A stretch of 64,000 nt of DNA from an uncultured Candidatus Saccharibacteria bacterium (GTDB lineage: Bacteria; Patescibacteriota; Minisyncoccia; Phycocordibacterales; SBAW01): NCBI GenBank assembly GCA_964650645.1, contig CAZYUH010000001.1, forward strand, positions 639,202 through 703,201, given 5' to 3'. The notes under the pieces were generated by a model. That model worked only from the letters and a program-made list of their open reading frames with translations, was not told where the DNA came from and searched no databases. This document shows positions 10,359 to 46,892 of this stretch, in pieces (position 1 is the first letter of the stretch; each line of letters opens with the position of its first letter). Position numbers and translations under genes: made by a program.

Positions 10359-13202
10359 ATGAAGATTAGTTATAAATCCGCAGGCATCGCCCTGTTATTA
10401 GCGTTCCCGTTCCTCGGTTCCGCAGCCACTACCAGCGATATCCCCCTTACCTTCAACGACGCCGTGTTCAGCGGCGTTACGAATTCAGGTTCGGTGAATC
10501 TGCCTAACGGCGGGATGCTCTCCAATAAGAGCATCACCGTTGACGGCCCCGCCGCCTCGGTCCTCTGCCAGGGCTCCTGCGTCCTGGAGCGCGTGCGCGT
10601 CGACTCCGCCGAAGCCGTCCGCGTCGGCGGCAGCGGCACGGTAATGATTAACAACTCGTACCTCGAGGCTACCGGCTCGGGCGACGACCACGCGGACACC
10701 ATCCAGGCCTACGCGCCGGGCGACCGCGGCACTATCAGCATCTCCAACACGTCCATAGTCGCGCACAACACCGCCGCGACCGCGGGCCTCTTCGTGGCCG
10801 ACAACTGGACCGGCACCATCAATCTCAACAACGTGGTCTTTAACGGCGGCCCGTTCGGCCTGCGCCTCCACCCCGACACGGGCGGCGACAACATCATATA
10901 CGCCAAGGATGTCTACTTCGTGGGACCCTTCGGCTATAACCCGATCCTCATGAGCGACTACGGCGGCCATAAGAACATCATCAAGCAGTGGGAGAACGTG
11001 CGCCATGCGACGATCGTGAACGGCAAGCTCGTCCCCGGCGATCTCATCCCCTGCCCGGTTTCAAGCTGCGGCAATGAGTCGTCTCCGACCACCCCCACTA
11101 CCCCGACTACGCCCACGACGCCGACTGCTCCGGCTTCGACTAAGTTCTCGACCGGCAGCCGCGTGCAGGTAGTGAACGGCCCGCTCAACGTGCGCACGGC
11201 CGCCACCACGGCCGCCACCCTGCTGGGCTCCCAGACAAACGGTTCCGCCGGCACCGTCGTGGGCGGCCCCACGGCTCAGGGCGGCTACATTTGGTGGAAC
11301 ATCAACTACGACTCGGGCGTCGACGGCTGGAGCGTAGAGAACTACCTTGCGGCCTACACCGCGCCTACGACGCCGACTACTCCCACCACTCCAACGACCC
11401 CCACCACTCCGGAGGTCAAGGATATTGAAAAGCCCACGACGCCGTCCGGCCTTACCGCGACCGCGGATTCCTCTTCCCAGATCAGCCTCTCGTGGGAGGC
11501 GTCCAGCGACGACGTGGGCGTCACCGGCTACGAGGTGTTCCGCAACCGCAGGTATGTCGCCACGGCGGCGGGCACGACCTACGCCGATACGGGACTCTCC
11601 GACTCGACCACCTACAGGTACCAAGTGAGGGCCCTGGATGCCGCGAACAGGCACTCGTCCAAGTCCAAGGCCGCGAAGGCGAGGACCCTTGAGGACGGTT
11701 CGGCTCCCGCGACGCCGACGGAACCGACCGCTCCGACAGCCCCGTCCACGCCCACCTCAAGCACGGGAATCCCCCTCAGCTTCAACGACGCCATGTTCAG
11801 CGGCGCCGAGAATTCGGACGCGGTCAGGCTCTCTAACGGCGGATCCGTGAGCAACAAGAGCATTACCGACACCGGCGATACCGCATCGGTCGTCTGCACG
11901 GGCGCGTGCACCGTCGACCGCGTCCGCATCAGTTCGCGCGAGGGCGTCCGCGTCGGCGGCAGCGGCACCGTCAGCATCAATAATACGTATATGGAGGTCA
12001 ACGGCACCGGCGACGACCATGCGGACGGCATCCAGGCCTACGCGCCGGGCGACCGCGGCACCATAAAGATGCGCAATTCCACTATTGCCATGGGCACCAC
12101 GGCCGTTAACTCCGCGTTCTTCGTCGCAGACAACTGGACCGGCACTATCGACCTCGAGAACGTCGTCATCAAGGGCGGCCTGTACGGGTTCCGCGTCCAC
12201 CCCGACACGGGCGGCGACAACACTATCTCGATGAAGGACGTGTACTTCGTCGGGCCGTTCCAGTACGGCCAGATCCTCATGACCGACGTTGCGGGCCACA
12301 AGAACAACATCGTCAAGTGGGAGAACGTCCGCAATGCGACGATCGTGGACGGCAAGCTCGTCCCCGGCGCGCTTATCCCCTGCCCGGCTTCCAACTGCGG
12401 CAGCACGTCTTCAAGCGAGCCGGAAGACCCTGAGCCGGCCCCGGCGACTCCTGAAGAGCCCGCTCCTTCGCAGCCGTCCGCTCCCGCTCCTTCAAGCGGC
12501 AGCGTCTCCTCGCTCTGGAGCGCCTCCGATACTCCCGTAACCGCAAGCGATCCGGATACGAACGCGGTCGAGCTGGGCATGAAGTTCTCGACCAACGTCG
12601 CGGGCAAGGTAACGGGCGTGCGCTTCTACAAGGGCTCCCAGAACACCGGCACGCACACCGGCAGCCTGTGGTCCTCTTCGGGCAGCCTCCTTGCGACCGG
12701 CACGTTCACTAACGAGAGCGCTTCGGGCTGGCAGACGCTTACCTTCTCGTCTCCCGTCAGCATCTCGGCGAACACGACCTACGTGGTCTCCTACCACACC
12801 AGCGTAGGCAGGTACGCGGGCGACAAGGACTACTTCGGCAGCGCGCGCACCAGCGGCCCCATTACGGCGCCCAGGAACGCGGGCGTGTACAAGTACGGCG
12901 CGGGCGGCTTCCCCACCCAGTCGTACGAATCGAGCAACTACTGGGTAGACGTGCTGTTCGTGCCGGAGGGCGTAGTCGCGGGCGCATCCTACTCTCCGCT
13001 GGCTATCGGCGACACGGTCAAGACCAAGGCGAACCTCAACGTGCGCTCGGCGCCGGGCGGCGCGGTCGTGGGCGTAGCGTCCCTTGGCTCTGCCGGAGTG
13101 GTGCAATCCGCGCCGCAGTCCGCGGGCGGCATCACGTGGCTGCGCGTCACGTACCAGAACGGGCTCAGCGGCTGGAGCTCCGCCGGGTACCTGACCCGCT
13201 AG
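10359..13202 (+). CDS. Large secreted multi-domain surface protein: 2x pectate-lyase-like beta-helix domain, PT-rich linkers, SH3b, fibronectin-III, DUF4082, C-terminal SH3b
   Basis: Signal peptide MKISYKSAGIALLLAFPFLGSAAT; two ~215-aa paralogous domains (IPLTFNDAVFSG... and IPLSFNDAMFSG...); TPTTP repeats; FN3 (ISLSWEASSDDVGVTGYEVFRN); DUF4082 signature (VELGMKFSTNVAGKVTGVRFYKG...NYWVDVLF). Confidence 0.7.
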   Translation: MKISYKSAGIALLLAFPFLGSAATTSDIPLTFNDAVFSGVTNSGSVNLPNGGMLSNKSITVDGPAASVLCQGSCVLERVRVDSAEAVRVGGSGTVMINNSYLEATGSGDDHADTIQAYAPGDRGTISISNTSIVAHNTAATAGLFVADNWTGTINLNNVVFNGGPFGLRLHPDTGGDNIIYAKDVYFVGPFGYNPILMSDYGGHKNIIKQWENVRHATIVNGKLVPGDLIPCPVSSCGNESSPTTPTTPTTPTTPTAPASTKFSTGSRVQVVNGPLNVRTAATTAATLLGSQTNGSAGTVVGGPTAQGGYIWWNINYDSGVDGWSVENYLAAYTAPTTPTTPTTPTTPTTPEVKDIEKPTTPSGLTATADSSSQISLSWEASSDDVGVTGYEVFRNRRYVATAAGTTYADTGLSDSTTYRYQVRALDAANRHSSKSKAAKARTLEDGSAPATPTEPTAPTAPSTPTSSTGIPLSFNDAMFSGAENSDAVRLSNGGSVSNKSITDTGDTASVVCTGACTVDRVRISSREGVRVGGSGTVSINNTYMEVNGTGDDHADGIQAYAPGDRGTIKMRNSTIAMGTTAVNSAFFVADNWTGTIDLENVVIKGGLYGFRVHPDTGGDNTISMKDVYFVGPFQYGQILMTDVAGHKNNIVKWENVRNATIVDGKLVPGALIPCPASNCGSTSSSEPEDPEPAPATPEEPAPSQPSAPAPSSGSVSSLWSASDTPVTASDPDTNAVELGMKFSTNVAGKVTGVRFYKGSQNTGTHTGSLWSSSGSLLATGTFTNESASGWQTLTFSSPVSISANTTYVVSYHTSVGRYAGDKDYFGSARTSGPITAPRNAGVYKYGAGGFPTQSYESSNYWVDVLFVPEGVVAGASYSPLAIGDTVKTKANLNVRSAPGGAVVGVASLGSAGVVQSAPQSAGGITWLRVTYQNGLSGWSSAGYLTR

Positions 13203-14881: not shown

Positions 14882-15127
14882 CTAGAAGCTGAACGGGAAT
14901 CCGTTCGGGAACGACGGGAAATTGATGGTCGGAATGCGGATGTCCGGGATGCGGATAGGCGGGAACTTTATTTCCGGGAAGCGTATCACCGGGAAATGTA
15001 TGGGCGGGATGTTCGGGAACCCGCCGCCTCCGCCGTAGCCGAAGTCGGCGGACGCCGCTGACGGCGCGAGCAGCACGACGGCGAATGCAGCCGAGGCCGC
15101 GTACGTCGCAAGTTTTCTAGTGGTCAT
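14882..15127 (-). CDS. Small secreted peptide with tandem Phe/Pro/Ile repeats (FPxIRxP x7)
   Basis: Signal peptide ...LLAPSAASA then GYGGGGGFP NIPPIHFP VIRFP EIKFP PIRIP DIRIP TINFP SFPNGFPFSF; DNA has ~15-bp cgggaa-containing tandem repeats. Confidence 0.5.
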   Translation of the reverse strand: MTTRKLATYAASAAFAVVLLAPSAASADFGYGGGGGFPNIPPIHFPVIRFPEIKFPPIRIPDIRIPTINFPSFPNGFPFSF

Positions 15128-15203: not shown

Positions 15204-16919
15204 CTAATCCGCTACGCGATACAAGTCAACACTGGGGGTGCTGATAACTTTCTCAAGCGCCGCAGAGCCCAAAAAGGGATACGAATAGGGGTCGTCATGG
15301 GCCTCGTCGGGGGTGTATATCACGTACCTGATCCCGAGGCCCGCTAATAATCTCAGTGTTTCGTCCGGATCGGCGTCATTGTCGGTAATGGCCGCCGAAA
15401 GGCGCGCGTACCCGGGGAGGCGCGACTGCTGTCCGCCGTCGCCTACTTCCCCTATTTCGGCACTCGCACCCTGATAAATGGTACAGTCGAAATATGAAGA
15501 TGAGGTGTTGGCCGTTAATAGACGGTTGTTGAAAACCGGCGTGTAGTACAGGTGCCAAGGGAGAAATACCGCCGCACAAGCATCATCCCGCTTCAATGTA
15601 TCGTTCACCGTTGCCCACCCGTCCGGGTACCACACGGGCCGTAATTGGCCCGCCAGGCCGAAGAGCGTGGTGGGCGTATACAAGAGCGGGATGCAGCACA
15701 GCGCGGCCATAGCCAAGCGCGGGCGCTTGAAGCGGCTGGCAATGTAACCTGCGCCCAATCCTCCTACAAGCGCGTACGCGAGCACCAACACGGCGCTCCA
15801 CTTCTGCGTATCCCTGAAGCCGCTCCAGAACGGCACATGATTGAACATCCATGCGTTGGCGTTTTGGAATATGCCCGGCCCGATGCCGGAGGAGAACACG
15901 AGCGCCAGCGCGCCTGCGCCGCACAGCCACAGCACGATAAAGCGGTTGCCCCGCCTGCGCAGGCCCGCGACAACTCCCGCGCACACAACGCCCGCAAGGG
16001 CGATGCCTGACAGCGCCCAGAGCAGGCCGCTCTCTTTAGGCCAGGCAAAGTACGTGATCCAGCGCTCGTGCTCGCCCCAAAAGCCGTACAGCGCCGCTAC
16101 GTTCCCTGCCGTGCCCAGTACCGGGTCGCTGGCGGTATAAAAGGCCCGCACGTCGCCCGCGCCGAAGTCGCTCAGCGCCGTTGCGGGCGCCGCAAAGGCC
16201 GGCACGAGCCAGTACAGGCTCGCAAGCGCAAATAGCAGACCGCAGGCGCATAAGCGGCCCAGGAGCGCCCGCGCCATGCGGTACTCCCCCGCGCACAGCA
16301 TGCGCGTTACGGAGGCCAGCGCGAATACGGCAAGCAGGACGCATCCCATGACCATAATGTGGAGCGAGAACATGCCCATGCATAGGAGCCACGCGCAGGC
16401 GTGCAGGGCGTGCCGCCACGCAAGGGTCCTGTACAGGCGCGTCAGCGAGCACGCGAGGGGGAACAGGAAGGCGTACGCCATGAGCACGCCCCACTGCCCC
16501 GCCAACATCCGCTCGTATACGAACGGGTTAACGGCGAACAGCGCCGATGCGAAATAGCGCCCAGCCCGATGGTCCTCGAACGGATAGAAGCGCAGAGGCA
16601 GGTAAAAAAGCAAATAGAACAGCCCGAACAGGATGCCCTTCTGGATGACCCAGACGGGCATCCAAAAATGCAGGAGGTATATAAGGTACCTGTACGGAAA
16701 CGCCGCCGCCGAAAGCCCCTCGTATGAAGGGAACGCCGCGTGTGGCCCGAAGACCATGTCGAGCGTGAGCACATAGCCCGGTAACAGCATCTGCCAGAGC
16801 ACTACCACGGCGCCCAGCGCCGCGATAAGCGCATGCTTGTAGTACAGCGCCGCAGCGCCTGCGCACGCCTTTAATGCCAGCGCCTTTGCCGCCCACGCGT
16901 TTGCCAATAGCCTTTTCAT
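15204..16919 (-). CDS. Polytopic membrane protein, putative GT-C-fold glycosyltransferase
   Basis: ~12 TM helices followed by ~130-aa C-terminal soluble domain; start taken at MKRLLANAW (ATG 16919-16917), directly abutting a palindromic operator. Confidence 0.45.
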   Translation of the reverse strand: MKRLLANAWAAKALALKACAGAAALYYKHALIAALGAVVVLWQMLLPGYVLTLDMVFGPHAAFPSYEGLSAAAFPYRYLIYLLHFWMPVWVIQKGILFGLFYLLFYLPLRFYPFEDHRAGRYFASALFAVNPFVYERMLAGQWGVLMAYAFLFPLACSLTRLYRTLAWRHALHACAWLLCMGMFSLHIMVMGCVLLAVFALASVTRMLCAGEYRMARALLGRLCACGLLFALASLYWLVPAFAAPATALSDFGAGDVRAFYTASDPVLGTAGNVAALYGFWGEHERWITYFAWPKESGLLWALSGIALAGVVCAGVVAGLRRRGNRFIVLWLCGAGALALVFSSGIGPGIFQNANAWMFNHVPFWSGFRDTQKWSAVLVLAYALVGGLGAGYIASRFKRPRLAMAALCCIPLLYTPTTLFGLAGQLRPVWYPDGWATVNDTLKRDDACAAVFLPWHLYYTPVFNNRLLTANTSSSYFDCTIYQGASAEIGEVGDGGQQSRLPGYARLSAAITDNDADPDETLRLLAGLGIRYVIYTPDEAHDDPYSYPFLGSAALEKVISTPSVDLYRVAD

Positions 16920-17236
16920 TCTAGTTTTTTGCAAAAAGCTAGAATGGCGTGGGCGCGTGGTGTCAGCTTATGGCGCACGTTCACGCTGTCGCTGCGCTTG
17001 GCCACAAGGCCCGCCATGGCCATCTTACGCAGGTGGTCGGACGCGTTCATGTACCCTATCGAGAGCCTCTGGGAGATTTCGTCGATAGACAGCTCGGGCT
17101 CGCGCTTAAGCAGGTCCAGTATGTGCAGCCGGCGGTGGTTCGCAAAGCCCTTTACCACGCGCTCAAGCCTCCGGTACTGCGCCCCTCCCTTTTGCCCCGC
17201 TTTTCCCTCTGTTTTGCGGCCCCTCGTTTGCATCAT
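16916..17236 (-). CDS. ArsR/SmtB-family HTH transcriptional regulator
   Basis: HRRLHILDLLKREPELSIDEISQRLSIGYMNASDHLRKMAMAGLV is a typical ArsR wHTH; 106 aa. Confidence 0.7.
   Translation of the reverse strand: MMQTRGRKTEGKAGQKGGAQYRRLERVVKGFANHRRLHILDLLKREPELSIDEISQRLSIGYMNASDHLRKMAMAGLVAKRSDSVNVRHKLTPRAHAILAFCKKLE
16922..16945. promoter_or_regulatory. Palindromic operator copy 1 (TAGTTTTTTGCAAAAAGCTAGAAT), overlaps arsR 3' end and the start of the downstream membrane-protein gene
   Basis: 24-bp exact repeat of the element at 17258-17281; core TTTTTGCAAAAA is a perfect palindrome flanked by CTAG..CTAG. Confidence 0.55.
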
Positions 17237-17257
17237 GCGGATATACTATACAGTTTT

Positions 17258-17281
17258 TAGTTTTTTGCAAAAAGCTAGAAT
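17258..17281. promoter_or_regulatory. Palindromic operator copy 2, overlapping the -35 region of the arsR promoter
   Basis: Identical 24-mer; on the minus strand it is followed by TATAGT 8 nt before the arsR ATG. Confidence 0.55.
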
Positions 17282-17379
17282 AAACCGGGAGGATGGAATG
17301 GATTGGGAGGGTGGTCGGGAAGGCTGGGCGCGCCAGGACATGCCAGTGCGCGCGTACTTGGGCGCCCTTGTTACCCTGC

Positions 17380-17748
17380 TCAGTCGCCGGCTTCGGTTCC
17401 CTTTTCGCGCCAGAGCTCTATGAGCTGGAGGGCCACCGTCATGCACAGGAAGAAGAACGCGAACACGGCCATGTACTCGGCAAACGCGTCCTGGTTAAGC
17501 GCGAGCAGGATTGGGCATGTTACCAGGCACAAAATGGCCAGTACGCCCACGATGCGGTTGTCCAGCCGGTACAGCGCGAACGAGAAGAACATGGCCCACA
17601 GCAAGCTCGAAATGACATCGGTCGCGTAGCCAATACCAATGAACGCGGCCACGATGAACGCCGCCTTCCATTTGCGCGCGGTTATATCGCTCCAGGCTTC
17701 CTTCAGCTCCTTTGTAAACTGCCTCCATACGATGCGTAGCGTGTGCAT
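17380..17748 (-). CDS. Small membrane protein, hypothetical
   Basis: 122 aa, 3 predicted TM helices. Confidence 0.4.
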   Translation of the reverse strand: MHTLRIVWRQFTKELKEAWSDITARKWKAAFIVAAFIGIGYATDVISSLLWAMFFSFALYRLDNRIVGVLAILCLVTCPILLALNQDAFAEYMAVFAFFFLCMTVALQLIELWREKGTEAGD

Positions 17749-17751
17749 ATA

Positions 17752-20595
17752 TTAGTGTGCGCGTGAGCGATACTTGCGGCGGACATGCCCTACCCCGGCG
17801 TAGCCCAGGTAGCCCAGACACCCGGCCAGCGTCAGCCCCGATACAATGAGCCCGAGGTAAAACCAGCGCTGGGGCCAGAATTCTATCACCATTTCAATGT
17901 CATAGCTCCCGCCGGGGTTTTGGGTACAGCCCGCCAGTTTTTGGACTTCGCACAGCTCTGTCGTGTCTACGTACCACCCGTTTAGGAAGCCATTGAGCTT
18001 GTAATGGTACTCGTCTCCTACCCTGTCGGGCTTGGCAAACGGCCACCAGCTATCCAATCGCCCTTGCACTTTGGCATTGTTGAGCTCTAAGTACCACTTG
18101 TCGTGATAACTCTCGCTCATGCCCAGGAAGAACGGCGTTGTTGCACCCCTTATGTACACCAGCTTCTTGGTCGGGCTTATAAGATCAAAGGTGGTGGATG
18201 CGGGTTGCACAAGCTGAGCATCCGGCTCGCTTACTAGATAATAAGAGCTGGATATATCCGGAATCTCGACAAGTTTGAAATTATCGTAACGGTTGATATT
18301 ATTAGTTTTTACGTCCGTCTCTTTTGCATATACATACAAACTGAGAGTTGTAGCCCCTGCAGGGACTTTTATGGTACGGGTTAAAGTATGCCAGGCAGTA
18401 TCGGTTAGCGGCAGATTCTCACTATCAGATGTCTTAACTGGGTCGTTAAAGCCAATGTAATAGGAAGCGGATTTTGCATTAGAACTTTGATAGTCGAAGC
18501 TCAATAAATATGTGCTAGTTGCATTAATAGGGAGTTCTATAGAGATGCAAGCAGTATGTCGAGTTGCCTCAAGTTGTAGAGATTGAACGCCGTCTGTCTT
18601 GTTATGGGCATCCAATTTCATTCCTAAAATAGGCTTTTGGTCATAATTATGACAATCCCCAACTGCTTGCTGCCAAAAACCTCTCTCAAAAGACCCATTG
18701 GTAATTAAATTTTTAAATGTGTAATTTTTATTTGTATAAGTAAATTGGTTATCGATACCATTTAATAAAGTAGTGCTCGAATATATGGGTTCATTATCAA
18801 TAGATAGTTTGTCGAAATTATTTAATGCGTAAAGTATATTTTTATTGGCAGAGTATATGGTTGTAGTAGCAGTAATACTCGAACTTGCGGTTGATATATT
18901 TTGAAAATTGACATTCTCAAATAACTGGTCAACATATGTTGCTGAAGAGGTGGCATTAGCTTTATTGAATAAGTAGAAATAAAAACCATTATGCAGTTGA
19001 TTGTTAACAAAATTATACTTTTCATCTAGATTATTTTTAGATTCAAAAGAATACAAATAATCAAATGTAAATATATTTCGTATCGATCTTATGTTTTTAA
19101 AAATAAACAAATTTGGATCTAGATACATATTGTTGACACGTGTCCAGTTACTATCTTTTGTGAGAGCGTTTATCTGATTCTCTGATACAGGAGTTGATAT
19201 ACAGGTTATTACGTAACCGGCACTATTTAGCAACGATAACGCATCTTGAATATTATCTTCTGATATATGTTTAACTTCTATATCTTTTGAAAGAAAATGC
19301 TGATTTAAAGTAAAAAATTTTATTTGATCAAGTTCATTACATATGCCGCCATCAACCCAAATAACCATGCTGTGGTTAGGTATATTGTTTAGTGATTGAA
19401 CTAGATCAGTATCAGGTAATTTGGGTATAAGTAATTTATTATAAATTTCAGTAAGCATGAATCCACACCAACCAAAAATTATTATAGTAAGAAAAGATAA
19501 TGATATAAATTTCAACGTTCTTGACATTCTCGAAATTCCCAAACCTAGAATTATTACTGCAAGTATGGGGATATATAATTGCCACTTAAGAGGTGATCTA
19601 AAGGCCCATCCACCCGGAAGATTATTTAGAATTGATAATATTATGTTTGAACCAAAGTTATTTAATGCCAACCAATATAAAAGTAGTAATATTCCTAGAA
19701 ATAATCTTGAAAAGAAACCTTCTATATTTTTATTATTAGAGTAAAAAAATGCAATTATAAGTAAAATCTGAAAAGAAAAACCAAAAATAACAAAAATAAT
19801 CTTATACCCTGAATTATAGTAATCATAATCAGTGAGAACATCTCTAGACCAAGTAAATGTATTAACCAAACTACCCGAGTTTGCAAACCCAATAAATGAA
19901 TCAGTATTTGAAGAGTTTGCATTTATCGTAGATACTATGGAAGCTTTATTTAAAGCTTGTGTTGAATAAATGCTCAATATAAGAAAGGCACTCAACATTC
20001 CACAAATTACTAATGCTTTTATGGCACTTATTATTAGTTCTTTTCTAAAAGGATTGCTGTAGAGCCGTGTTACAAAGAAAATTGTCGCTATAAAAGTATT
20101 TACGATGAAAGTAAACGGATGAATTAATGAAACGATTAATCCAAAATAAGCTAAAATAAAGTAACGAGGGCTTTTTGTCTGAATATATTTTTTTAAAAGT
20201 ATTATTACAAAAGGCAACATTGAGGCGCCTAAAATTAATCCTATTTTCGAAATATTTGCTAGAAATATCGGGTTAATAACATAAAATAAACTCAACAAAA
20301 AACGTGTATGAATATCTATTTTTTTAAAAAAAGATAATGCAAAATATGCAGAACATGCCGCAATCACAAGCGCTAGAAATAAGTATAAATAAGATACACC
20401 AAGGTTTCCAAGAATTGGATAAAATATAAGCAAAAAAAGCCTTATTGGTAGTCGAAAAACGCCATCCAAATTAATAGCTCCATTTTGGGAAGACCAAAGA
20501 TAGAATGTTTTTAGAAAATATATCCATGCTTCAAATGGAAACCCAAAATCACCGTTAGCTAGAAATCCTAAATTAAATATATTACCGAAGTACAT
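17752..20595 (-). CDS. Large polytopic membrane protein (YfhO/GT-C-like N-terminal 13 TM region + ~450-aa extracytoplasmic domain + C-terminal TM anchor), mosaic composition
   Basis: 947 aa; N-terminal 2/3 encoded by AT-rich DNA, C-terminal third by GC-rich DNA; C-terminal domain looks like a carbohydrate-binding/jelly-roll domain. Confidence 0.5.
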   Translation of the reverse strand: MYFGNIFNLGFLANGDFGFPFEAWIYFLKTFYLWSSQNGAINLDGVFRLPIRLFLLIFYPILGNLGVSYLYLFLALVIAACSAYFALSFFKKIDIHTRFLLSLFYVINPIFLANISKIGLILGASMLPFVIILLKKYIQTKSPRYFILAYFGLIVSLIHPFTFIVNTFIATIFFVTRLYSNPFRKELIISAIKALVICGMLSAFLILSIYSTQALNKASIVSTINANSSNTDSFIGFANSGSLVNTFTWSRDVLTDYDYYNSGYKIIFVIFGFSFQILLIIAFFYSNNKNIEGFFSRLFLGILLLLYWLALNNFGSNIILSILNNLPGGWAFRSPLKWQLYIPILAVIILGLGISRMSRTLKFISLSFLTIIIFGWCGFMLTEIYNKLLIPKLPDTDLVQSLNNIPNHSMVIWVDGGICNELDQIKFFTLNQHFLSKDIEVKHISEDNIQDALSLLNSAGYVITCISTPVSENQINALTKDSNWTRVNNMYLDPNLFIFKNIRSIRNIFTFDYLYSFESKNNLDEKYNFVNNQLHNGFYFYLFNKANATSSATYVDQLFENVNFQNISTASSSITATTTIYSANKNILYALNNFDKLSIDNEPIYSSTTLLNGIDNQFTYTNKNYTFKNLITNGSFERGFWQQAVGDCHNYDQKPILGMKLDAHNKTDGVQSLQLEATRHTACISIELPINATSTYLLSFDYQSSNAKSASYYIGFNDPVKTSDSENLPLTDTAWHTLTRTIKVPAGATTLSLYVYAKETDVKTNNINRYDNFKLVEIPDISSSYYLVSEPDAQLVQPASTTFDLISPTKKLVYIRGATTPFFLGMSESYHDKWYLELNNAKVQGRLDSWWPFAKPDRVGDEYHYKLNGFLNGWYVDTTELCEVQKLAGCTQNPGGSYDIEMVIEFWPQRWFYLGLIVSGLTLAGCLGYLGYAGVGHVRRKYRSRAH

Positions 20596-20597
20596 AC

Positions 20598-21665
20598 CTA
20601 TTTATTGTTAAAAGATATGAGGTTCTGAATATAAATTTTAGATATATCTAGGATCGCCTCATCCTTTTGACCCAGAGATTTCAAAAGCTGTGTACATTTA
20701 TTATCATAAGAAATAGGGATATATTTGACACCACTTAAGGCAGCTAGGAGCATCCCATGATACTGAGGCAAGATACAAACAAGACTTTCCTTATTGTTTC
20801 GTAAAAATAAATAAAAACTAATTGGATTGCCGCTAAAATTTTTTATTATAATTCGATCAGTATTTAATAAGTTTGCGTGTAATTTTTGGAACTCAAGCAC
20901 ATCTGAATACATACTATTTTTAAAACTTGGATGCAGAGCTAGAAGTAAAAAATTATCAGTGCTTTTATATTGAATAAACTTTTCAATTACTGCAACGTAA
21001 TTAGAAATTTCAGTTGTACTATTACCTCGATAACTAACAATATAATTAATTTGTTTAGGATCTATTGGAAACAGTGATTTAGCCTCGACCTTATAAGCTT
21101 CGAGGTTCAAATTATTTAACAAAAAGGCAATATCTTGAGTTAGAACAACTTTCCGTTTAAAACCTAAACCAGAAAATGAATAGTATGTTTCTTCATCTCT
21201 TGCATAAATTTTATTTGACGCAAGTCCAGAAATAAATGCACCGAAGTGGCCAATCATTCCTGTCGACTTATAATATCCAACGCCAATAAGATACACTTCT
21301 TTTCTAAGCACGAATCGCGCTGCAAGTAATAAAAAGGAAAGTATTAAAACTTTTAAATTGAAATCCAGCCCCCAGAGTCCACCTCCTCCGATTATAGTTC
21401 TTTTGCTTACAAATAAAGCCTTTAGGACTCCCATTATCGAAGGCTTAATCAAACGAGCTTCTTCAAACGAATGGTGAGAATCGGAATAAATTTCACTATT
21501 TAAATAAATAAATTGTGTATTTTTTATATTTCTTGATTTGAAATAATTTAGCAAAACTTCTAGAATTAGCTCATCTCCCATATTTCCACCACCATAAAAA
21601 CCAAACAAAAAAGAATTGGAAAAATCAAGCTTATCTAATTCTAATTTTAATTTTCTTGTTTCCAT
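20598..21665 (-). CDS. Polysaccharide pyruvyl transferase family protein
   Basis: FYGGGNMGDELILEVLL ... IIGGGGLW motifs typical of PF04230 (CsaB/WcaK-like). Confidence 0.7.
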   Translation of the reverse strand: METRKLKLELDKLDFSNSFLFGFYGGGNMGDELILEVLLNYFKSRNIKNTQFIYLNSEIYSDSHHSFEEARLIKPSIMGVLKALFVSKRTIIGGGGLWGLDFNLKVLILSFLLLAARFVLRKEVYLIGVGYYKSTGMIGHFGAFISGLASNKIYARDEETYYSFSGLGFKRKVVLTQDIAFLLNNLNLEAYKVEAKSLFPIDPKQINYIVSYRGNSTTEISNYVAVIEKFIQYKSTDNFLLLALHPSFKNSMYSDVLEFQKLHANLLNTDRIIIKNFSGNPISFYLFLRNNKESLVCILPQYHGMLLAALSGVKYIPISYDNKCTQLLKSLGQKDEAILDISKIYIQNLISFNNK

Positions 21666-21666
21666 A

Positions 21667-22518
21667 TTAACAACTTACTCTTGCCCACAGTTTCGTTTTT
21701 TTTATAAAATTAAAAAAATAATTTTTTTGTTCCGCATTAATAAAACTGTCTAGTAAAAAAGAAAGCAAAGTATATGCATACATTCCAATCTTGTTGGGCG
21801 GCGAGTATTTTCTTAAATACTCCATCCGTGACTGAAACATTAATTTTGTTTTGATTTTAAAATACTGATCCGTACTATTTTTATGTTTTCTGTATTTATA
21901 TAAATATTCAGGCAAATTGGCTCCTTGTTTACCAGCCATTATAAATCTTAAAAACATATCTACATCTTCAATGTAATCTTTGTCATCACGATACGCTCCG
22001 ATTTCAAGAACATCACTTTTTCTAAACATTATTGTTGGATGAAGAAAAGGGTAATGAAAAAAATATAACTTAGATATAACATGTGGTTCAATTGGAAACT
22101 CAATGGAAGCAAGCTCTATATTGCTTTCATTAATAATAATCGCAAAAGTGCCAACAAGGGATAAGGCAGGATTCTTGGATAAATATAGATATTGTTTTTC
22201 GAGTCTGTCAGGTGTCGAGATATCGTCCCCATCCATACGCGCAATTATTTCACCCCTAGCTATACTTAGCCCTTTATTTAAATTTTTTGCGATTCCTATA
22301 CGTTCAGTATTTTTTATATATATAATTCGCGGGTCAAATAAATAACGTTTTATAATTTTTTCAGACTCATCAGTGGATGCATCATCAATAATAATGAATT
22401 CAAAATCAGAGTACGATTGATTCAAAATACTTTCAATTGATTCACGTAAAAAAGCCTCGGCATTTCTAAAAGGCATTACTACAGATATTTTAGGTTGTTT
22501 AGTCATATGATTTTGCAA
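21667..22518 (-). CDS. Glycosyltransferase family 2
   Basis: ISVVMPFRN...IIIDDASTDES...MDGDDIS (DxD) GT-A signature; true start may be the Met at 22506. Confidence 0.75.
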   Translation of the reverse strand: MQNHMTKQPKISVVMPFRNAEAFLRESIESILNQSYSDFEFIIIDDASTDESEKIIKRYLFDPRIIYIKNTERIGIAKNLNKGLSIARGEIIARMDGDDISTPDRLEKQYLYLSKNPALSLVGTFAIIINESNIELASIEFPIEPHVISKLYFFHYPFLHPTIMFRKSDVLEIGAYRDDKDYIEDVDMFLRFIMAGKQGANLPEYLYKYRKHKNSTDQYFKIKTKLMFQSRMEYLRKYSPPNKIGMYAYTLLSFLLDSFINAEQKNYFFNFIKKTKLWARVSC

Positions 22519-23326
22519 CTAGTATACCTATTCCACCAACTCCAAACTCACAAGTTTTCATAAAAAGCATGCCGACTCCAATGAAAAGATTTTTAAAAAG
22601 TTTAATCGGGCGCGAGAAGAAAAGGATGTAACGGTTAAAAATCCCCGCCGTTCTCTTGCTGGAATTGATAGCACCTTTGGAGTGGCAGAGATACGCCTTT
22701 GCCTGCTTGGCGTAATAATACTTTTTCTTAAGGGTTTTGCCGAGACTTATCTTCCCTTCGTTGTGATAAATTGCGTCGCTGATTCGCGCGATCTTCCCTA
22801 GCGCCTCTGCCCTGTCAGACAAGTCCCAGTCTTCGCCGGAAATCAGGGCTTCGTTATATCCCCCGACCTTATCAAAAGTTGCCTTGCTAAAGAATCGAGC
22901 GGCTTCAATGGCGTCTACCCCGACATAAAAGCTCCGCTCAAGCTTTTTGCACTGCGCCCAGAACCCCTCGCCAAACGACTCTTCGGGGATGATAATACCC
23001 GCCGCGTCCGCGCTTGAGGCCATTACCCGCACGCAGCTTCCGATAACGCTCTTGGAAACCACCATGTCGCTGTCAATAAACACGACATGCTCCCCTGACG
23101 CCTGCGCCGCGCCAAAATTGCGCTGTGCGCTGCGCTCTGGGCCTTTGGTGAATACCTTGTCCGTAAAGCGCCGCGCGATTGCCTGGGTGTCGTCGGCACT
23201 GCTGTTGTCTACCACGATTAGCTCGATGTTCTTGTATGACTGCTCCTTAATCGAGCGCAAGCACGCCTCTAAAAACTCCGCAGAGTTCTTTGTGGGCACG
23301 ATGACTGATACGAGCGGGTTAGGCAT
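22499..23326 (-). CDS. Glycosyltransferase family 2
   Basis: VSVIVPTKNSAEFL...LIVVDNSSADDT...IDSDM; start at MPNPLVSV (internal Met of ORF 22499..23398); overlaps downstream GT2 by 20 nt. Confidence 0.75.
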   Translation of the reverse strand: MPNPLVSVIVPTKNSAEFLEACLRSIKEQSYKNIELIVVDNSSADDTQAIARRFTDKVFTKGPERSAQRNFGAAQASGEHVVFIDSDMVVSKSVIGSCVRVMASSADAAGIIIPEESFGEGFWAQCKKLERSFYVGVDAIEAARFFSKATFDKVGGYNEALISGEDWDLSDRAEALGKIARISDAIYHNEGKISLGKTLKKKYYYAKQAKAYLCHSKGAINSSKRTAGIFNRYILFFSRPIKLFKNLFIGVGMLFMKTCEFGVGGIGILVAKSYD

Positions 23327-28479: not shown

Positions 28480-28721
28480 CCCTTAGCGTAGCATGGGTTT
28501 TAGGCAGGTTGCCCGCCGGCCCGGCATTGCTGCGGCCGTCCACCAGTACGAAAAAACCTGCCTCAAGGCAGTCTTTCGTGTCTTTGTGGTCACAGATACT
28601 CCAGTCGCCGCCGCGACCGGATTTCCGCGCCCCCGACTCGCTCCCGCGCCTGCTGGCGCGGGGCCCGCTCCGTCTTCCACAAACGCGAAAGTGCATGCCC
28701 CGGCATGCACTTCTCGTCGCT
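28480..28721. repeat. tRNA-linked hairpin-array element, locus D (partial family member)
   Basis: Contains the family motifs ccgtccaccagtacgaaaaaacctgcctcaaggcag and ttgtggtcac plus nested hairpins (gcatgccccggcatgc); lies immediately 3' of tRNA-Ala(GGC). Confidence 0.5.
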
Positions 28722-36825: not shown

Positions 36826-37103
36826 CGCAATGCCTTGCAGGGTGGCATTGCTCCGGCCGTCCAGTTTTGTCGTATGTGGTCACAAGTTCGTTTGCGCCGT
36901 CGCGCAAACGCCTCGCGACCCCGGCTCGCCGTCCCGCAAGTGCGGGACATGGCTGCGCCTTCCACTTTGTGGTCAGGGATATTTTCAGCGCCGTCGCGCT
37001 GAAAATTCCACGACCCTGGCTCGGCTGTTTTGCCTGCTGGCAAAACATGCCTCCGCCTTCCACCAGTACGAAAAAATCTGCCTCAAGGCAGATTATTTTC
37101 GTC
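36826..37103. repeat. tRNA-linked hairpin-array element, locus A
   Basis: Series of perfect tetraloop hairpins (GTTTGCGC-CGTC-GCGCAAAC; GTCCCGC-AAGT-GCGGGAC; TTTTCAGCGC-CGTC-GCGCTGAAAA; GTTTTGCC-TGCT-GGCAAAAC) separated by ccactttgtggtca-type flanks, ending in terminator ctgcctcaaggcag+T-tract abutting the tRNA 3' end. Confidence 0.6.
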
Positions 37104-38394: not shown

Positions 38395-38616
38395 AATACT
38401 TTATTTTTTAAGGATTGTCAAGATTTATTTTGCCGTCCCGCCAGTGCGGGACATGGCTGCGCCCTGCACATGTTATTTGTGGTCAGGGATATTTTCAGCG
38501 CCGTCGCGCTGAAAATTCCACGACCCTGGCTCGGCTGTTTTACCTGCTGGCAAAACATGCCTCCGCCCTGCACATGTACGAAAAAACACCCAGCAGTGGG
38601 TGTTTGTTTCGTCATG
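38395..38616. repeat. tRNA-linked hairpin-array element, locus B (shares ~130 nt near-identical block with locus A)
   Basis: ccgtcccgccagtgcgggacatggctgcgcc...tttgtggtcagggatattttcagcgccgtcgcgctgaaaattccacgaccctggctcggctgtttt(a/g)cctgctggcaaaacatgcctccgcc; differs from locus A by 2 substitutions. Confidence 0.6.
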
Positions 38617-46555: not shown

Positions 46556-46892
46556 CGCGCGCCTATCTGGATATACAGCCGTCCACTTTATGGTCACAAG
46601 TTCGTTTGCGCCGCCACGCAAACGCCGCGTCCACCTAGCGCCTGCCGCAAAGCGGCATCGGCGCTTGCCTCCGGCACCGGATGAAAGGCAAAGCAGTTTG
46701 CCTTTCATCCCCGCCTCGCGGTTTTGCAAGTGCAAAACATCGCTGCGGCCGTCCACTTTGTGGTCACAAGTCGAATTTTTTCGTCAAAAAATTCGCTCGC
46801 GACCCCGGCTCGCCGTCCCGCCAGTGCGGGACATGGCTGCGCCTTCCACAAAACCAGAAAACCTGCCTCAAGGCAGGTATTTCTGTGTTTTG
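46556..46892. repeat. tRNA-linked hairpin-array element, locus C (longest copy)
   Basis: Two ccgtccacttt(g/a)tggtcacaag units each followed by a hairpin, plus a GGATGAAAGGCAAA-GCAG-TTTGCCTTTCATCC perfect 14-bp stem, a gtttgcgccgccacgcaaac hairpin and a GAATTTTTT-CGTC-AAAAAATTC hairpin; shares cgcgaccccggctcgccgtcccgccagtgcgggacatggctgcgccttccac with locus A; terminal cctgcctcaaggcagg+T-tract. Confidence 0.6.

Follow-up and report, generated by a model that had tools for sequence, protein, structure and literature searches.

Regulators of the ArsR/SmtB type that do not sense metals, such as HlyU and its relatives, are dimers that bind palindromic DNA, and they are usually autoregulated from a site that overlaps their own promoter. 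Binding sites can also lie inside coding DNA: gal OI is found in galE, lac O2 in lacZ, PurR operators in purR, and parS in spo0J/parB. The roadblock at lac O3 in lacI was reportedly studied by Abo et al. in 2000, work that is cited in the LacI autoregulation paper. LacI bound to lac O3, at the 3' end of lacI, truncates the lacI transcript, which leads to SsrA tagging, and the site helps to repress the neighbouring genes (PMC3711431). Neither autoregulation by ArsR-type repressors nor the presence of auxiliary operators within coding DNA is new as such. Here we analyzed a small ArsR/SmtB-fold regulator gene in a 64,000-nt stretch of contig CAZYUH010000001.1 (hereafter the window), which carries one palindrome in front of the gene and a second one in its last nine codons.

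We propose that the gene product is probably an autorepressor, with a promoter operator (O1) and an auxiliary operator in its own coding end (O2) that would act by looping or as a roadblock. The literature that was searched has no mention of this motif or of the regulator in candidate-phyla bacteria.

Two palindromes and their conservation

The 24-mer TAGTTTTTTGCAAAAAGCTAGAAT is present as two exact copies in the window, at 16922-16945 and 17258-17281 on the plus strand. The original prediction had noted these identical copies and held that chance was an improbable source, and we reached the same result: the expected number of chance matches was 0.00 in dinucleotide-preserving shuffles, even when 3 mismatches were allowed. 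A third match, at 16918-16941 on the minus strand with 2 mismatches, is simply the reverse reading of the first copy, as expected of a palindrome. Both copies are cores of 28-bp palindromes centred on TTGCAA, and the region is A+T-rich in a genome of ~62% G+C. In the 3' palindrome 13 of the 14 arm pairs are complementary; the 5' palindrome has 11 of 14, and its left arm reads TTTTTAG instead of ATTCTAG. The CTAG flanks described for the palindrome are complete at the 3' copy only. The two copies depart from symmetry in the same way, with an A where a G would be both synonymous and palindromic.

The 3' copy had been described as overlapping the regulator stop codon and abutting the ATG of the next gene. 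The 24-mer itself ends 3 nt before the stop, whereas the full 28-bp palindrome reaches the T of TGA (16918) and does overlap the downstream ATG at 16919..16917. O2 corresponds to codons 98-106 (ATT CTA GCT TTT TGC AAA AAA CTA GAA; ILAFCKKLE) plus that T, and it encodes most of helix a5. The 3' copy lies wholly in the regulator coding sequence rather than in a spacer. The two palindromes are ~336 bp apart. Copies for the source organism were counted in the window and in 5 related contigs. A weight matrix built from the sites of other species gave the two scores listed in Table 1; the next-best place in the window scored -4.6 bits and the best shuffle 6.3, which leaves two sites only in 64 kb.

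Table 1. Coordinates of the regulator gene, its proposed operators and promoter elements, and the downstream gene in the window.
Feature	Position	Strand	Remarks
Gene for 571-aa polytopic membrane protein	15204..16919	-	ATG overlaps regulator TGA (ATGA)
Gene for 106-aa ArsR/SmtB-fold winged-helix regulator, stop included	16916..17236	-	HTH_5, MarR winged helix-turn-helix, HlyU (6e-9), structure model, fold matches
O2, proposed auxiliary operator (3' 28-bp palindrome)	16918..16945	.	Matrix 50.7 bits; in 81/81 homologues
TAGTAT, -10-like hexamer ending 6 nt before ATG	17243..17248	-	Family comparison; overlaps TATAGT
O1, proposed primary operator (5' 28-bp palindrome)	17254..17281	.	Matrix 39.0 bits; equivalent upstream of 81/81 homologues
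TTGCAA, -35-like hexamer at palindrome centre	17265..17270	-	16 nt upstream of TAGTAT; family geometry

From species-representative genomes, 78 loci were fetched using two peptide patterns. Since these patterns were N-terminal and central, the C-terminus had no part in finding the homologues. Start codons and neighbouring genes in the fetched loci were called heuristically. The resulting set consists of 81 genes at ≥50% identity from ~70 Parcubacteria/Paceibacteria species. Proteins of the regulator family are ~92 amino acids (aa) long. They share 65-80% identity among Adler-, Kaiser-, Nomura-, Taylor-, and Niyogibacteria and further Parcubacteria/Paceibacteria, and a genome often encodes 2-3 paralogues. 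All 81 genes have the core TTTTGCAAAA in their last codons, as an invariant 10-nt core, and in 76 of 80 the stop codon ends 16 nt past the centre of the 3' site. Upstream, the same core was found within 200 nt of 80 of the 81 genes, its centre most often 30 nt from the ATG; the remaining 5' site (L014), recognized by eye, was missed by the scan because the start call of that gene fell inside the site. In 1.1 Mb the 10-mer TTTTGCAAAA occurs 218 times vs. ~1 expected, with 84 occurrences at 5' ends, 81 at 3' ends (together 165 of the 218 at the two ends of regulator genes) and 53 elsewhere. Perfect palindromes are more frequent among the 5' copies (25) than among the 3' copies (6). A non-pairing mismatch at +/-5.5 is present in 64 of 80 3' copies; at this position the Lys-Lys/Arg codons disturb the symmetry, which usually leaves O2 weaker by one mismatch.

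The coding DNA under O2 differs from the rest of the gene in codon choice. In the codon alignment, conserved columns along the gene use near-random synonymous codons (Leu columns, for example, have 2.2-2.4 bits where 2.58 is the maximum). In the last ten codons variation nearly disappears, with TCT at 98%, ATT at 83%, CTA at 94%, and TTT, TGC, AAA, and GAA at 100%. In the genome of the window, CTA makes up 2% of Leu codons, GCT 7% of Ala, TTT 14% of Phe, and AAA 18% of Lys. Given the peptide and the codon usage of the window, the probability of the codon string 98-106 is ~7e-9, and the G+C content at third codon positions drops from 0.79 in codons 1-97 to 0.11 in the last nine. These frozen rare codons and the low third-position G+C indicate that selection acts on the C-terminal coding DNA itself, as nucleic acid. 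We read this as a double code, kept in 81 genes of ~70 species, in which the synonymous positions of nine codons are frozen because the same DNA is also a predicted binding site. With selection at the DNA level, the invariant Phe-Cys-Lys may be conserved at least partly through the site (TTT TGC AAA), and conservation of the C-terminal Cys in the family is by itself no evidence of a sensor residue.

Selection on nucleic acid might also act on the transcript. The 3' palindrome would then be an RNA hairpin that terminates or stabilizes the message or occludes the overlapping start, leaving translation of the next gene to coupling only, and the promoter copy would be a separate DNA operator, alike in sequence by coincidence. 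The sense RNA of the 3' copy folds at -13.2 kcal/mol (z = -2.8), a value matched by 0 of 200 shuffles, with the downstream AUG in the base of the stem, and G.U wobbles at 3' arm mismatches are more frequent in sense RNA (52) than in antisense RNA (28). The ATGA overlap, found in 24 of the 81 genes and followed in 9 of them by an open reading frame (ORF) of at least 100 codons, would also suit occlusion of a start. However, no U-tract follows the A+U-rich stem (the next letters are GAAAAGGCUAUUG), a terminator scan was empty at either copy, no Rfam match was obtained at E ≤ 1, and termination at the stem would cut off the overlapping downstream gene. Conservation also goes beyond what pairing needs. 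The 10-nt core is invariant in 81/81 genes, while the mispairing at +/-5.5 is tolerated in most 3' copies, and 87 of 167 mismatches are unable to wobble on either strand. Furthermore, the same motif is found in untranscribed promoter DNA, where the sense fold in the window reaches only -2.8 kcal/mol (z = 0.34), no better than shuffles. We therefore consider the hairpin explanation unlikely and return to the motif as a protein-binding site in DNA.

The two copies of a given gene also vary together. Over the 18 positions outside the core, identity between the two copies of one gene is 81.5%, vs. 68.5% when the pairs are shuffled, and 0 of 5000 shuffles reached the observed value. Paralogues on the same contig keep distinct matched pairs, TAAC..GTTA vs. 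TAGT..ACTA, in L031, L090/L091, and L104. All 11 genes of the TAAC..GTTA class have Arg or Lys at the tip of the b-wing, vs. 1 of 70 others. Recognition-helix residues that would separate the TAAC and TAG classes were looked for and none was found; the classes differ just at the wing tip and at the residue for which the palindrome codes.

The regulator and its proposed promoter and autorepression

Pfam matches of the regulator cover the winged-helix cores of MarR, HTH_24, and HTH_5. HTH_5 scored 26.8 bits (cut-off 22), and the NCBIfam ArsR/SmtB model NF033788 scored 46.6 bits (cut-off 55). When the family profile was compared with solved structures, HlyU (6e-9) and CadC (1e-7) were matched, and also CzrA, SmtB, NolR, and AspA. 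The AlphaFold (AF2) model has a predicted local distance difference test score (pLDDT) of 74.7 and the order a1-a2-a3-a4-b1-b2-a5 of the ArsR/SmtB topology (helices 16-31, 34-45, 51-58, 62-74, and 93-105; strands 78-82 and 87-91). Its best fold matches are HlyU, CadC, SqrR, NolR, BigR, and SmtB, and the top 42 matches in the PDB are all of ArsR/SmtB type. The assignment to the ArsR family in the original prediction is thus supported by the profile search, the model, and the fold matches.

MarR proteins are ~140-150 aa long, and their N- and C-terminal helices make a dimer domain around the winged helix-turn-helix. PF01047, which models a 59-position core of that kind, matched the regulator at 31.3 bits, yet the protein has 106 aa and a single C-terminal helix, and the first MarR-type fold match, AdcR, came only at rank 43 with a root-mean-square deviation of 10.8. 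We did not retain the MarR family as a candidate. The sensor types of the ArsR/SmtB group were rejected as well. An As/Cd/Pb sensor of the ArsR/CadC type has Cys-x-Cys in helix a3, and CadC a further Cys at the N-terminus; the CadC segment ELCVCDIA aligns to ELSIDEIS, in which Cys-x-Cys has become Ser-x-Asp, and C102 is the single Cys. A Zn/Co/Ni sensor of the SmtB/CzrA type has an Asp/His ... His/His(Glu) set of ligands in a5; the a5 consensus of the family, PRAESILVFCKKLE, has no conserved His or Asp, and H96 of the window protein is not conserved; the hidden Markov model alignments to CzrA and SmtB end before a5. A thiol or persulfide sensor of the HlyU/BigR/SqrR type, in which two conserved Cys of each protomer join in an intramolecular di- or tetrasulfide, is not in line with one Cys only, and Cys38 of HlyU (LQILCML) aligns to Asp41 (LHILDLL). 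The alignments thus lack the known metal and dithiol sensor sites, and the metal signal that had been suggested for the regulator appears unlikely.

All relevant genes lie on the minus strand. An upstream 122-aa membrane ORF ends at 17380, and the 143-nt spacer between it and the regulator gene holds O1, whose centre (17267/17268) is ~31 nt before the regulator ATG. On the minus strand O1 reads ATTCTAGCTTTTTGCAAAAAACTAAAAA, and the coding-strand layout is ATTCTAGCTTTTTGCAAAAAACTAAAAA-CTGTA-TAGTAT-ATCCGC-ATG, i.e., TTGCAA-16-TAGTAT-6-ATG. A generic consensus promoter scan called no promoter at the regulator gene or at the 3' copy in the window, so the assignment rests on family comparison. A TAnnnT hexamer is located 13-19 nt past TTGCAA in 48 of 80 5' copies (mode 15; equivalent to TTTGCA-16-TAnAAT), and in 27 of these 48 homologues it ends exactly 6 nt before the ATG. 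A Shine-Dalgarno-like tetramer was found in just 1 of 80 genes. The regulator messenger RNA is thus probably leaderless, as had been suggested. The -10 element had been given as TATAGT (17250..17245), 8 nt from the ATG; the distance is right, but the family favours the overlapping TAGTAT. With its centre ~31 nt before the probable start, over the -35 element and the spacer, O1 occupies what we take from the sequence to be a repressor position. The autoregulation that had been proposed is consistent with this overlap of palindrome and promoter, and the palindrome is found upstream of 81/81 homologues. The 3' copy was also considered as a promoter in its own right and rejected: a -10-like hexamer is found at promoter distance in 12 of 81 3' copies only (vs. 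48 of 80 5' copies), and none is present in the window.

In the proposed scheme, a small dimeric repressor of ArsR/SmtB type would recognize the operator ATTCTAG-nn-TTTTGCAAAA-nn-CTAGAAT. We infer from position and conservation that it binds both sites and that binding represses. On O1 it would occlude the -35 element and spacer of its own leaderless promoter and shut off its own transcription. O2 would have a dual role, coding for the C-terminal helix and serving as a binding site. It might cooperate with O1 through the ~336-bp loop and raise the local occupancy of O1, or it might form a roadblock to RNA polymerase that has escaped from O1, before the gene end or the entry into downstream DNA, as lac O3 does. 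In the window, the next gene begins inside O2, and O2 would also limit the 571-aa membrane protein.

Several observations weigh against this scheme or parts of it. In the window, O1 is the poorer palindrome of the two. In some species the 5' copy is 40-79 nt from the called ATG, where its position does not indicate repression or activation. The centre-to-centre spacing of the two sites is 272-336 bp, mostly in steps of 3 and without 10.5-bp phasing, which does not favour a rigid loop, and an ArsR-type dimer of 106 aa has no evident tetramerization surface. The co-variation and wing-tip statistics ignore phylogeny, with the TAAC genes perhaps forming one clade, and part of the co-variation could come from gene conversion of one copy by the other. 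Finally, stand-alone copies (see below) lie in tandem, divergent, and convergent intergenic regions, and the function of the motif may exceed that of a promoter operator. Given the small protein and the lack of helical phasing, we lean to a roadblock or local capture over a rigid loop.

The gene downstream of O2 had been taken as the reason for the second site. Because its ATG overlaps the regulator stop as ATGA, the membrane gene is necessarily co-transcribed with the regulator and under the same control, and it is probably translationally coupled to it. This co-regulation follows from position and is silent on why the 3' site exists. If the 3' copy were there to gate the membrane gene, either by controlling a promoter specific to it or as a control point reserved for it, the start of that gene inside the palindrome in the window and in close relatives would be explained, and substantial ORFs do start at the overlapping ATG in 9 of the 81 homologues. 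The overlap arises where the outer arm GAAT is followed by GA; the counts of ATGA given above, which include the window, indicate that coupling to a downstream gene is recurrent but not general. However, the 3' copy is fixed in the last nine codons in 81/81 genes whatever the neighbour: downstream of the homologues, 73 neighbours group into as many as 61 unrelated clusters, with 22 of these neighbours in convergent orientation. Such unrelated neighbours argue that the 3' copy is part of the regulator gene rather than of the membrane gene. Homologues of the 571-aa protein are widespread across Patescibacteria lineages and annotated as hypothetical only, yet none was present near the regulator within the retrieved flanks of up to 10 kb at the 78 other loci, and the membrane gene follows the regulator only in the near-identical relatives L079-L083. 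The scarcity of -10-like hexamers after the 3' copy, and the absence of one in the window, also speak against a separate promoter. We conclude that a site dedicated to the membrane gene is quite improbable, and that the membrane gene would be co-regulated in the window only through a chance start inside the site. Its description as a GT-C-like glycosyltransferase could not be verified: the 571-aa protein matches no Pfam family, and the sole NCBIfam match (NF053599, MmpA family trehalose lipid delivery protein) scored 177.8 bits, under the cut-off of 210.

Stand-alone copies of the site

We also examined copies of the motif away from the regulator gene. A metagenome scan with TCTAGNTTTTTGCAAAAANCTA in 241 million records returned 36 stretches only, all from other organisms than that of the window. 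Within these stretches, 16 cores are at regulator 5' ends, 16 at 3' ends, and 36 are stand-alone. Most of the 53 stand-alone cores in the genome loci are full palindromes, and some loci have 3-4 further sites within 20 kb. By crude gene calls, the contexts of the stand-alone sites are tandem (22), divergent (11), or convergent (6), with 18 "inside" ORFs, against a background of 598 tandem, 174 divergent, and 174 convergent regions. The stand-alone sites probably mark a regulon in the relatives. Examples are L026 6907/7792, L056 627/1798, L067 5115-8993, and L102 1569-5223, and some of the stand-alone sites are identical copies flanking small genes.

Could the copies have no regulatory role at all? 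They might belong to a dispersed repeat, bound a cassette that moves or recombines together with the regulator gene, or be the decaying trace of a tandem duplication, the upstream copy then being the end of a vanished paralogue. Direct repeats do flank the regulator, several genomes have 2-3 paralogues, stand-alone palindromes occur on other contigs in all intergenic types, and the common asymmetry of the two copies in the window fits gene conversion. The original prediction had named a generic repeat as the finding that would count against it. With two copies only in 64 kb and so few metagenome stretches, and with three quarters of the genomic cores (165/218) at regulator ends, the element is not a generic high-copy repeat. 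Flanks share nothing past the palindrome, no recombinase or transposase is encoded at the locus, and the position of the site is fixed relative to the -10 hexamer and the ATG. The 5' copies are the more perfect ones, opposite to what a decaying remnant would give, and the double site is kept across species whose proteins are only 63-80% identical. A non-regulatory origin therefore has hardly any probability in our view.

Another possibility is that the protein acts like AspA or ParB, nucleating on the site and spreading as a centromere or boundary complex, or that it is an activator or promoter-specificity factor for a large regulon. The archaeal centromere-binding AspA is among both the sequence and the fold matches, the family is unusually conserved across many candidate orders with several copies per genome, some loci carry the extra sites within 20 kb, and in some species the 5' copy is upstream of the -35 region. 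The AspA match is weak (E ~3e-4), however, compared with HlyU and CadC; no ParA/ParB partner adjoins the gene in the window; the window holds two sites only; and its O1 is centred over the core promoter, where a repressor would be expected. We rate this explanation as very improbable, and autorepression from O1 with O2 as auxiliary site remains the reading that we prefer.

A sister palindrome with the same arms and the core TTCTGCAGAA was seen at L102 1517, 1950, and 2871, L108 8807, L034 15953, and L104 7716, often 20-50 nt from a TTTTGCAAAA palindrome. In frame, it would read F-C-R-T-L-E, and a paralogous regulator whose core specificity has changed may use it as operator. At L040 12050-12400, a distant ArsR homologue (12111-12374; 31% identity, 87 aa) adjoins an ArsC of the low-molecular-weight phosphatase type. 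It shows the same design with another palindrome, TCTCTTATTCGCGCGAATGG then TAGAAT at the promoter and TCTCTAATTCGCTCGAATAA as the last codons. The likeness was judged by eye only, with a longest exact match of 8 nt, and it is a single case, from the sole distant ArsR-like gene in the fetched DNA. A stand-alone sequence at L059 9880-9915 resembles the L040 palindrome.

Other features of the window and comparison with known systems

Apart from the regulator locus, the window has a low-GC island at 18300-22900 (28-39% GC vs. ~62%). It holds the N-terminal three quarters of a 947-aa membrane/CBM_4_9 ORF (17752..20595, minus strand), a 355-aa ORF, and a GT2-like 283-aa ORF. The GC shift falls inside the 947-aa ORF, and close relatives have other glycosyltransferase genes at the same place. 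The island resembles an exchangeable cassette for surface glycans or the junction of a recombination event. A repeat family of up to ~180 nt (28528-28571, 36912-37091, 38416-38601, and 46702-46876) is located directly 3' of four minus-strand transfer RNA genes (Ala-GGC, Ala-CGC, Val-CAC, and Ala-UGC); on the minus strand it has the hairpin CTGCCTTGAGGCAG followed by a T-run and is terminator-like. At 14882-15127 (minus strand), an 81-aa ORF has a signal-peptide-like N-terminus and the Pro/Ile-rich repeat FPNIPPIHFPVIRFPEIKFPPIRIPDIRIPTINFP, and an ORF matching it in size and position was called in close relatives. Segments 10440-10822 and 11769-12151, 1329 nt apart, are 73-78% identical, which suggests tandem paralogous genes.

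Parcubacteria/Paceibacteria are uncultivated and have very few transcription factors, and knowledge of their gene regulation is minimal. The present analysis ties a highly conserved small regulator to a predicted 28-bp target and to a leaderless promoter layout. It provides a concrete predicted protein-DNA pair that is accessible in vitro without cultivation, and a motif that allows regulon prediction in hundreds of genomes. A broader claim, which we put forward tentatively, is that across a class of candidate-phyla-radiation bacteria the operator of the regulator consists of the codons of its own C-terminal helix, with Phe-Cys-Lys kept by the DNA. If so, a change of operator would rewrite the protein tail, and the paralogue variants FCKTLE, FCKRLQ, and possibly FCRTLE would track their own palindromes. 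A gene marked by itself in this way could be a new autoregulatory design, in which a roadblock gives non-stop transcripts or the site is an insulating boundary. With stand-alone sites elsewhere, the regulator may then be a major global regulator of Paceibacteria.

Among described regulators, HlyU, NolR, BigR, SqrR, and PagR come closest. They share the order of fold elements and a length of ~100 aa, with HlyU as the best match in sequence and template modelling (TM) scores of 0.65-0.77 for HlyU and the others. HlyU, BigR, and SqrR own Cys pairs, whereas the window regulator has one Cys. We know of no second operator in the last codons of the own gene in any of the HlyU, NolR, BigR, SqrR, and PagR families. 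The metal sensors ArsR, CadC, SmtB, and CzrA have the same fold too, and resemble the window system in autoregulation from an inverted repeat in the operator-promoter region and in a co-transcribed membrane gene. Their operators are of 12-2-12 form, whereas the window operator is a 28-bp palindrome without spacer. In further distinction from these sensors, helix a3 of the window regulator has Ser-x-Asp, a5 has no His/Asp cluster, and no metal-resistance gene is nearby. AspA of the Sulfolobus plasmid pNOB8 is an ArsR-like winged-helix protein of ~90 aa with a palindromic binding site beside its gene; it spreads from that site and works with ParB and ParA, and no such partners adjoin the window regulator.

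With respect to operators in coding DNA, purR and spo0J are similar in that the site lies within the gene of its own binding protein, under a double constraint as here. To our knowledge, the sites in galE, lacZ, purR, and spo0J are not tied to the last nine codons and are not exact copies of a promoter site, and we know of no conservation of them with frozen synonymous sites across a bacterial class. Likeness to lac O3 consists in a weaker operator copy at the 3' end of the repressor's own gene, before the next transcription unit. In the lac system the primary operator is in the downstream operon and not in the lacI promoter, and O3 loops to O1 via a tetramer. Moreover, lac O3 is a feature of one operon, whereas the 3' site of the window type is family-wide at a fixed codon position. 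What appears to be new is thus that a whole regulator family keeps an operator copy in its last nine codons, where synonymous positions are frozen, and that this copy co-varies with the one at the promoter.

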